NCBI GenBank assembly: GCA_963642145.1
Contig: CAVIFU010000001.1
Coordinates: forward strand, 4,645 to 68,644
Reading direction: 5' to 3'
DNA from: Ruminococcus bicirculans (ex Wegman et al. 2014)
Lineage (GTDB): Bacteria; Bacillota; Clostridia; Christensenellales; DTU072
Length of the DNA: 64,000 nucleotides
The notes beneath the pieces were generated by a model, which made no database searches, was not told the DNA's origin, and saw only the letters and a program-made list of their open reading frames with translations. Within the stretch, counting starts at the first letter, position 1, and each line of letters opens with the position of its first letter. Of this stretch, positions 43,576 to 43,911 are shown in pieces. Both the position numbers and the translations under genes were made by a program.

Positions 43576-43700
43576 CGTTTACTATGTTTAGCTCAACGAC
43601 CTCCTATTTAGATTTATTTATACTTAGAATCTCAAAAGATTCGACAGCATCGAAACCACTAATTAGCTATTTGGGTTAGATAAATTGAAATATAAAACTA

Positions 43701-43728
43701 AAAGACGGACTTATACCCGTCTTTTTTT
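43701..43728. terminator. bidirectional terminator hairpin AAAGACGG-acttatac-CCGTCTTT
   Basis: T7 on the plus side; TTTTagTTTT on the minus side. Confidence 0.6.
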
Positions 43729-43735
43729 CACCCTA

Positions 43736-43764
43736 TTGCCTTCCTCGGAATGTTTTGCTATATC
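43736..43764 (+). promoter_or_regulatory. candidate promoter for the small peptide gene (TTGCCT-17-TATATC)
   Basis: Hexamers read directly. The SD AGGAGG (43776-43781) follows. Confidence 0.4.
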
Positions 43765-43787
43765 ACGCAAGAAAAAGGAGGTCACTC

Positions 43788-43868
43788 ATGTCAGTTTTTG
43801 AAATACTCTCTATAGTGCTTCAAATGTTGGATATCTTAGTATCCGTATTACAAAAACGCCATAAGTAA
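43788..43868 (+). CDS. 26-aa hydrophobic peptide MSVFEILSIVLQMLDILVSVLQKRHK; Hol-Tox-like or type I toxin candidate
   Basis: Not in the ORF track. AAAGGAGG ends 6 nt before the ATG. It has a single amphipathic/hydrophobic helix and a basic C-terminus. From memory, the N-terminal MSV.E.L pattern resembles the 'putative holin-like toxin' peptides of Firmicutes. Confidence 0.5.
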   Translation: MSVFEILSIVLQMLDILVSVLQKRHK

Positions 43869-43882
43869 CGCTCCCTTGCGTT

Positions 43883-43911
43883 ATTATAGCAAAACCTTCC
43901 CGTGTTGTCAA
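43883..43911 (-). promoter_or_regulatory. perfect consensus promoter TTGACA-17-TATAAT on the minus strand, firing antisense into the peptide gene
   Basis: The minus-strand hexamers correspond to plus-strand tgtcaa (43906-43911) and attata (43883-43888). The predicted start is ~8 nt beyond the peptide stop codon. Confidence 0.6.

Follow-up and report, generated by a model that had tools for sequence, protein, structure and literature searches.

Does a 26-codon open reading frame (ORF) lying between two facing promoters encode a toxin that is kept silent by its own antisense RNA? The frame is at positions 43788-43868 of a 64,000-nt stretch of DNA from Ruminococcus bicirculans (ex Wegman et al. 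2014) (assembly GCA_963642145.1, contig CAVIFU010000001.1, positions 4,645 to 68,644 of the forward strand), and this whole stretch is what we call the window. A preliminary description of the locus, made from the letters alone, proposed a type I toxin-antitoxin (TA) system with a Hol-Tox-like peptide. As far as can be judged in silico the layout of such a system is indeed present, while the profile tests do not support the Hol-Tox kinship. In our opinion the locus may well be a credible, lineage-restricted type I TA-like module; we lean towards this reading tentatively, on the basis of the sequence, and regard it as close to an even question.

The peptide gene and its antisense RNA

The elements on which the argument rests are the following.

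43700-43728, both strands: intrinsic terminator hairpin, 11-pair stem at 43700-43725, T-run to 43728
43736-43764, plus strand: promoter, TTGCCT at 43736-43741, 17-nt spacer, TATATC at 43759-43764, by direct reading
43774-43781, plus strand: Shine-Dalgarno (SD) sequence AAAGGAGG, 6 nt before the ATG at 43788
43788-43868, plus strand: 26-codon ORF and stop, encoding MSVFEILSIVLQMLDILVSVLQKRHK, ATG at 43788, TAA at 43866-43868
43776-43874, plus strand: predicted fold-back of the mRNA, -23.9 kcal/mol, z = -2.1, inverted repeats I2 and I3
43697-43876, minus strand: predicted cis-antisense RNA of ~177-180 nt, its ends set by promoter and terminator
43883-43911, minus strand: promoter, TTGACA at 43911-43906, 17 nt, TATAAT at 43888-43883, 12/12 in the promoter scan

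On the plus strand, direct reading places the promoter, the SD sequence, the 6-nt gap, the ATG and the ORF where the preliminary description had put them. The promoter is a weak one of the sigma-A type, matching the consensus at 8 of 12 positions and unlisted by the promoter scan, with a TG at 43756-43757 that makes an extended -10 (TGcTATATC). The peptide mRNA is predicted to start at ~43771, which leaves a 5' untranslated region (UTR) of only ~17 nt. By eye, neither a LexA (Cheo) box nor a sigma-B-type promoter was seen upstream of the ORF; this was no formal test. Translation of the 26-codon ORF is probable.

The peptide itself has the general appearance of a type I toxin. Residues 1-22 of MSVFEILSIVLQMLDILVSVLQKRHK are strongly hydrophobic (GRAVY 1.8), and the polar residues S2, E5, S8, Q12, D15, S19, Q22 and K26 recur at a spacing of 3-4 on one face of the helix; the hydrophobic moment of 0.35 is reached by only 1.3% of shuffles (p = 0.013). 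The C-terminus is basic, KRHK (the peptide ends in QKRHK), and a positively charged C-terminus is typical of such toxins (PMC8309996). Thus the peptide is shorter than 70 aa and has both a hydrophobic helix and a polar or charged C-terminus, three properties by which type I toxins have been sought before (PMC2887945). Its gene stands at a distance from the flanking genes, as published criteria ask (PMC2887945, PMC8309996). A length of 26 aa falls inside the known range, which includes IbsC (19 aa), ShoB (26), DinQ (27) and TisB (29) (PMC8309996).

On the minus strand, the promoter scan finds the perfect TTGACA-17-TATAAT that had been claimed, with a consensus extended -10 (TGcTATAAT); transcription from it is predicted to start at ~43876, ~8 nt past the stop codon of the peptide. 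The predicted RNA is complementary to the entire ORF, the SD sequence, the mRNA start and the plus promoter, which is the span proposed earlier; its ends are taken from promoter and terminator. Its length comes out close to the ~185 nt first given, only slightly shorter. With an overlap of 106 nt between predicted antisense RNA and predicted mRNA, the antisense component by which a type I system is recognised is present in silico. The RNA is predicted to fold into a long 5' hairpin and the terminator hairpin (-49.4 kcal/mol, z = -3.5), and a fold this stable fits the report that antitoxin genes coincide with local minima of free energy (PMC2887945).

The terminator had been placed at 43701-43728 and described as bidirectional. 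It is found again as the 11-pair hairpin, and since it is flanked by an AAAA A-tract and a T7 tract it would be usable in both directions. It is predicted to end the antisense RNA on the minus strand and to insulate the peptide gene from plus-strand transcription arriving from upstream. Taken together, these signals make the existence of a small RNA gene on the minus strand well supported.

Could such an arrangement appear by chance? Perfect TTGACA-17-TATAAT promoters number four in the 64-kb window against 0.01 expected, and 3/4 of them fall within 1.8 kb around the peptide locus. AGGAGG-N4-9-ATG is a weak signal by itself (three in the window, 0.84 expected); apart from the peptide ORF, it precedes genes of 265 and 800 aa. 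We defined a composite, namely GGAGG, 5-9 nt, ATG and an ORF of 15-60 codons with a hydrophobic body and at least three basic residues among the last five, which occurs once in the window and in 0/300 dinucleotide-preserving shuffles; its thresholds were picked after the candidate had been seen, and its significance is somewhat overstated for that reason. The promoter count and the shuffles exclude a chance origin of the locus. The fourth perfect promoter, at 14850-14878 on the plus strand, is followed after 22 nt by an ordinary ORF with its start at 14900; hence consensus promoters serve normal genes too in this genome.

The locus has a further property, which is that it is built as an imperfect palindrome with its centre near 43827. 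In the alignment the plus promoter appears as a degenerate inverted copy of the minus-strand promoter (inverted repeat I1), and the inverted similarity runs on beyond the promoters through ACGCAAG, GGAG, ATG and G.GTTTTTG. What corresponds to the ORF on the minus side is only MAFL and a stop, that is GGAG, 8 nt, ATG and four codons. It is because of the palindrome that the antisense RNA forms its long 5' hairpin and that the mRNA folds back. The predicted fold-back joins a 5' arm made of SD, AUG and codons 2-7 to a 3' arm made of codons 20-26 and the CUCC that directly follows the stop. Within it the CUCC is paired to GGAGG and the His-25 codon to the AUG; SD and start codon are thus both predicted to be sequestered. 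Sequestration of the SD by 5'-3' pairing has been described for most type I toxin mRNAs (PMC5416894). The similarity between the promoters falls outside both predicted transcripts, and therefore RNA structure alone is no explanation of it; an inverted duplication of DNA is a simpler origin of the palindrome.

If the locus is a type I module, how would it work? We suppose that the antisense RNA would be made in abundance and would silence the peptide twice over. Its strong transcription, running convergently over the weak plus promoter, would amount to transcriptional interference; in addition SD and AUG would be hidden in a duplex of ~106 bp that RNase III would accept as a substrate. The mRNA would add a third layer of its own, as its GGAGG and AUG would be occupied by its last codons and the CUCC past the stop. 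If made, the peptide would insert in the membrane as a single helix, with the KRHK tail as an anchor at the cytoplasmic face, and its narrow polar stripe could line a small oligomeric pore like that of TisB; loss of membrane potential and growth arrest would be the outcome. Toxicity of the peptide is an inference. Given its place in a strain-variable island, with a tyrosine integrase next to it, the module would likely serve to stabilise its segment, or else persist there selfishly.

One can go a step further, and we do so as a speculation that we ourselves find unlikely rather than likely. The locus could represent the first of a new family of pore-type toxins of uncultured Clostridia, ultra-short at 26 aa, its gene being built as a palindrome in which one inverted duplication gave both convergent promoters, the antitoxin hairpin and the SD-sequestering fold-back; it would then be a self-contained addiction cassette of ~210 nt, flanked by repeated terminators and movable between islands.

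Relatives and genomic setting

The first thing to ask of the peptide is whether it belongs to Hol_Tox (PF16935), as the resemblance of its N-terminus had suggested. A Pfam hmmscan finds no family at E<=10, with PF16935 and the SpoVM-type short-peptide models included, and NCBIfam and PHROGs yield no match either. The annotation 'holin-like toxin' corresponds to the TxpA family (PMC2887945). A TxpA profile was built from five sequences, including two representatives added by exhaustive search; it is a narrow profile and was run with all filters off. The TxpA query sequence retrieved proteins tagged PF16935 and named 'Toxic peptide TxpA'. The profile gives the peptide 4.2 bits, a score that 1.25% of shuffled peptides equal, and the alignment does not run from N-terminus to N-terminus but sets peptide residues 5-19 against profile positions 19-33. 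By eye MSVFEIL of the peptide does resemble MSTYESL of TxpA (signature M-[ST]-x-[YF]-E-x-L), although seven residues carry little information. Further, the peptide has 26 aa where the family has 38-59 aa, and its hydrophobic stretch is broken by E5, Q12, D15 and Q22. Membership in the Hol_Tox/TxpA family is thus not supported by the sequence.

Searches for any other relative were equally negative. A tandem-duplicated query found no match among 5.8 billion protein clusters, and wobble-degenerate DNA patterns for residues 1-13, 1-10 and 12-23 found no true match in genome, metagenome and viral collections; the lone metagenome match (L007) was dismissed as chance, lacking a ribosome binding site and continuing in non-hydrophobic sequence. 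There was no tblastn match at E<=10 in 50,697 phage records (a collection that we expect, unchecked, to include Clostridioides difficile phages) and none in plasmids, no match among the sequences of the PDB, and none in exact look-ups of the 26- and 37-aa forms. BLAST of the stretch 42546-44469 gave no match among phages or plasmids. No paralogue of the peptide exists in the window or in the loci that we fetched; a second 'FEILSI' at 43636-43619 is not one, being part of the C-terminus of a truncated 221-aa gene. The only other copy of the locus is a contig of 1329 nt (L002), which comes from sequencing run SRR13434599 and is 100% identical. It should be said that sampling of this lineage is sparse, for in 185,579 species genomes the best match to ynbB reaches 53% identity.

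The surroundings of the locus add three features to those given above.

43661-44303, no strand assigned: segment X, 643 nt, strain-specific, holding the peptide/antisense module and a GC-rich structured stretch
43604-43666, minus strand: C-terminal remnant of the 221-aa gene, LISGFDAVESFEILSINKSK and stop, the gene being intact in L001/L102
43910-43942, plus strand: left terminator and its CACCCTA tail, repeated directly in degenerate form (D1 and D2)

A sister strain (L001/L102) is ~96% identical over 39223-43660, diverges exactly at 43660 and is without segment X, which elsewhere occurs only in the identical contig L002. The breakpoint 43660/43661 is marked by the remnant of the 221-aa gene, of which the window keeps the last 20 codons; in the sister strain this gene runs up to the gene of a 110-aa protein. 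Segment X is hence joined to a truncated operon. That it could be the native upstream region of the operon in L102 was considered and is not shown, as that contig starts inside another gene.

Between ynbB (44516-45751) and the tyrosine integrase gene (37421-38620) the island encodes orphan proteins throughout. The variable part extends over 37421-44515 (L102 1-9538 in the sister strain), and the integrase gene adjoins lexA. The sister strain has extra genes there, whose products of 358, 216, 683 and 221 aa begin with signal or transmembrane segments; in the window these genes have been deleted or replaced. At the ends of the island no att-like direct repeat of 10 nt or longer was found. The nearest relative with the same recombinase (L025) has unrelated cargo in the equivalent interval. 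In several distantly related Clostridia (L025 5210-8826, L031-L033, L051, L081, L099) ynbB is again followed downstream by a tyrosine recombinase gene; these recombinases are 28-46% identical to the integrase of the window, and the genes lying between them and ynbB are unrelated. The pattern suggests that downstream of ynbB the recombinase is conserved while the cargo slot next to it varies. Variable and mobile elements are also where clostridial type I systems occur, aiding the maintenance of the element (PMC7699646).

The 110-aa protein (43237-43569, minus strand) and a 119-aa protein (42665-43024, minus strand) are paralogous, very basic and without a Pfam or NCBIfam family. The former has 76 uncharacterised relative clusters in metagenome-assembled genomes of Christensenellales and Clostridia (loci L008-L021). 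One relative belongs to a conserved cluster (SprT-like, then 86, 141, 65, 80, 130, 178, 378, 186 and 734 aa), and this cluster is inserted at ten or more different chromosomal sites; another lies directly after a Rep gene (Rep_OBD origin-binding domain and superfamily 3 helicase). The whole has the look of an uncharacterised family of mobile elements.

Several RNA features lie close to the module. A candidate small RNA gene is present in two copies that are ~90% identical, at 42596-42682 and 44354-44440, both on the plus strand, and again in L102 at 5732-5817 on the minus strand. The two copies lie in a direct repeat of 166 nt, 1758 nt apart, and each has a perfect TTGACA-17-TATAAT upstream and a U7 end. 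The predicted fold is a three-way junction (z = -7.3 and -4.1) of 24 consensus pairs, and in another strain a single compensatory change is seen. No Rfam family matches this RNA, and all hits of a covariance model built for it fall within this species. Copy 1 and the 119-aa gene are convergent and overlap at the 3' end of the gene, and copy 2 carries a 47-nt remnant of such an end. Pairing of this RNA with either transcript of the module is no better than in shuffled controls.

The stretch 43990-44300 is GC-rich (48-50%, with ~33% around it), contains a perfect 10-bp GC hairpin at 44004-44027 and folds stably on both strands (z = -5.4 on the minus strand, -3.9 on the plus strand). It has no Rfam match, and its 23-mer is unmatched in the genome and viral collections. 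The stretch may represent a separate RNA, or else the peptide mRNA may have it as its 3' UTR. The terminator with its CACCCTA tail is directly repeated, at 43694-43735 and 43910-43942, 207-216 nt apart, and brackets the peptide/antisense module like a cassette. The second copy forms only an A/U-only hairpin of 7 bp, which the terminator scan did not call, and it is doubtful as a terminator of the peptide mRNA.

Weighing the readings

Several points weigh against the interpretation of the locus as a type I module, and they deserve to be stated together. The plus promoter is a poor one, since besides matching at only 8/12 positions it has a C in place of the conserved, nearly invariant T at -7. 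Past the peptide ORF the terminator scan finds no convincing plus-strand terminator for ~370 nt; the next good one is at 44235-44251, and therefore the mRNA may carry 43990-44260 as a 3' UTR. Two acidic residues stand within the 21-residue hydrophobic stretch of the peptide. The z-score of the mRNA fold (-2.1) is modest, and the palindrome makes the SD-like sequence and the ATG partly a by-product of the hairpin on the opposite strand. No homologue of the peptide was found in any collection searched and the sole other copy is 100% identical, hence there is no evidence of purifying selection on the frame. It is the terminator alone that is repeated; the toxin ORF is not in tandem. Finally, a small hydrophobic ORF with an antisense RNA need not be toxic, as the case of YhzE-2 illustrates (PMC2887945).

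This last point leads to the alternative that survives best, namely a non-toxic small membrane or amphipathic peptide, either a modulator of a membrane protein or a surface-active one, whose level is tuned by the antisense RNA. The same sequence evidence speaks for it as for a toxin. YhzE-2 has an antisense small RNA and is non-toxic even in its own host (PMC2887945), and the two acidic residues of the helix disfavour simple transmembrane insertion. On the other hand no partner gene (a transporter, an immunity gene, a membrane complex) lies nearby, the Pfam models of short peptides such as SpoVM are unmatched, and a full antisense overlap from a consensus promoter combined with a self-silencing fold exceeds what is usual in the repression of small proteins. 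We consider this explanation unlikely, although it is one to be taken seriously.

Slightly less probable still, in our view, is that only the minus-strand RNA of ~180 nt is functional, as a CCUCC anti-SD regulator or a regulatory RNA of the island, while the ORF is silent or vestigial and its SD and ATG are largely the mirror image of a hairpin. The palindrome certainly invites this thought, given that the minus side likewise has its GGAG and ATG, though with an ORF of just four codons. The plus promoter is weak and lacks the -7 T, the frame has no evidence of conservation, and two further candidate small RNA genes with perfect promoters lie in the same 1.8 kb. Yet the frame stays open for 26 codons and encodes an ordered hydrophobic helix with a polar stripe at 3-4 spacing (p = 0.013) and a basic tail, the composite is absent from all 300 shuffles, and the promoter similarity lies beyond what either transcript could account for by its structure.

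A third possibility is that the minus transcript is the leader of the operon of the 110-aa and 119-aa proteins, which has lost its native upstream genes, and that the hairpin at 43700-43725 serves as an attenuator. In L001/L102 the 110-aa gene is co-transcribed behind the 221-aa gene, which the window truncates at 43660, and the promoter scan shows no other minus promoter between 43911 and the gene start at 43569. However, when the whole leader is folded its terminator hairpin remains stable and no competing antiterminator is predicted (z = -1.6 overall), no Rfam riboswitch or leader family matches, and the SD and ORF of the plus strand are left unexplained. As a full account of the locus this is improbable; as a secondary role it is compatible with the other readings.

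That the arrangement is fortuitous or is inert debris of recombination we regard as barely conceivable, for although it lies exactly at a strain-specific junction and has no relatives in any collection searched, it combines a perfect promoter expected at 0.01 per window, a composite seen in 0/300 shuffles and a matched terminator at the right distance.

What would it mean if the type I reading were validated? Almost nothing is known of type I systems in uncultured gut Clostridia, and a toxin family without sequence relatives would be added, together with a compact palindromic design of ~210 nt that has three silencing layers (promoter interference, duplex and fold-back). A toxin of 26 residues could serve as a counter-selection marker or as a model of a pore-forming helix. 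As this is a single locus of a well-known kind, its general impact is modest.

Comparison with known systems

The closest parallel in setting is provided by the C. difficile prophage systems (CD0977.1-RCd11, CD0956.2 and relatives; PMC7699646). They too are found in Clostridia, on mobile or variable elements, with an AGGAGG ribosome binding site a few nucleotides before the ATG, a peptide with a hydrophobic N-terminal part and a positive tail, and a cis-antisense RNA with a sigma-A-type promoter. These systems help to maintain their elements, and all C. difficile phages carry such toxins (PMC7699646). However, the C. difficile toxins have 34-47 aa with Lys-rich tails and form a family conserved across C. 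difficile phages, while ours has 26 aa and is unmatched in the phage collection; further, the antisense RNA predicted here covers the whole gene and its promoter, whereas those of C. difficile leave part of the transcript uncovered. TxpA/RatA and BsrG/SR4 of Bacillus subtilis are likewise Firmicute systems of mobile elements with convergent antisense RNAs. Their toxins of 38-59 aa have an uninterrupted transmembrane stretch of ~25 residues, in contrast to the peptide described here, and their antitoxins overlap only the 3' ends.

Ibs/Sib and ShoB of E. coli are comparable in the extreme shortness of their toxins (19 and 26 aa), which ORF callers usually miss. The gene of Sib lies directly opposite the toxin coding sequence, and PMC2887945 includes this among the arrangements that it lists. 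These systems are proteobacterial, tandemly repeated and conserved across species, whereas the present locus is a single copy without relatives found and is palindromic, with matching convergent promoters.

With respect to the mRNA, the resemblance is to aapA1/IsoA1 of Helicobacter pylori and to hok/sok (PMC5416894), in which the toxin mRNA is inert by virtue of pairing between its 5' (SD) and 3' parts and the antisense duplex is a substrate for RNase III. The aapA1 and hok mRNAs, whose UTRs are long, become active only after 3' processing; the mRNA predicted here has a 5' UTR of just ~17 nt, the pairing partner lies inside the last codons of the ORF, and no processing step is known.

With respect to the peptide, it is TisB/IstR-1 of E. 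coli (PMC8309996) that comes to mind. There is no sequence homology between TisB and our peptide. The antitoxin IstR-1 is encoded in trans, in divergent orientation, and acts at a standby site within a long 5' UTR, and tisB is controlled by LexA, of which no box is evident here. Nevertheless both peptides are very short single helices (29 aa in TisB, 26 here). For TisB a narrow polar strip made up of D5, K12, D22 and K26 has been reported, along with a hydrogen bond formed by Q19 (PMC8309996). Set side by side, the strip consists of D5, K12, Q19, D22 and K26 in TisB and of E5, Q12, D15, Q22 and K26 in our peptide. The mean hydrophobicity and the hydrophobic moment are also similar, and in both cases the structure of the mRNA, predicted in ours, blocks translation.

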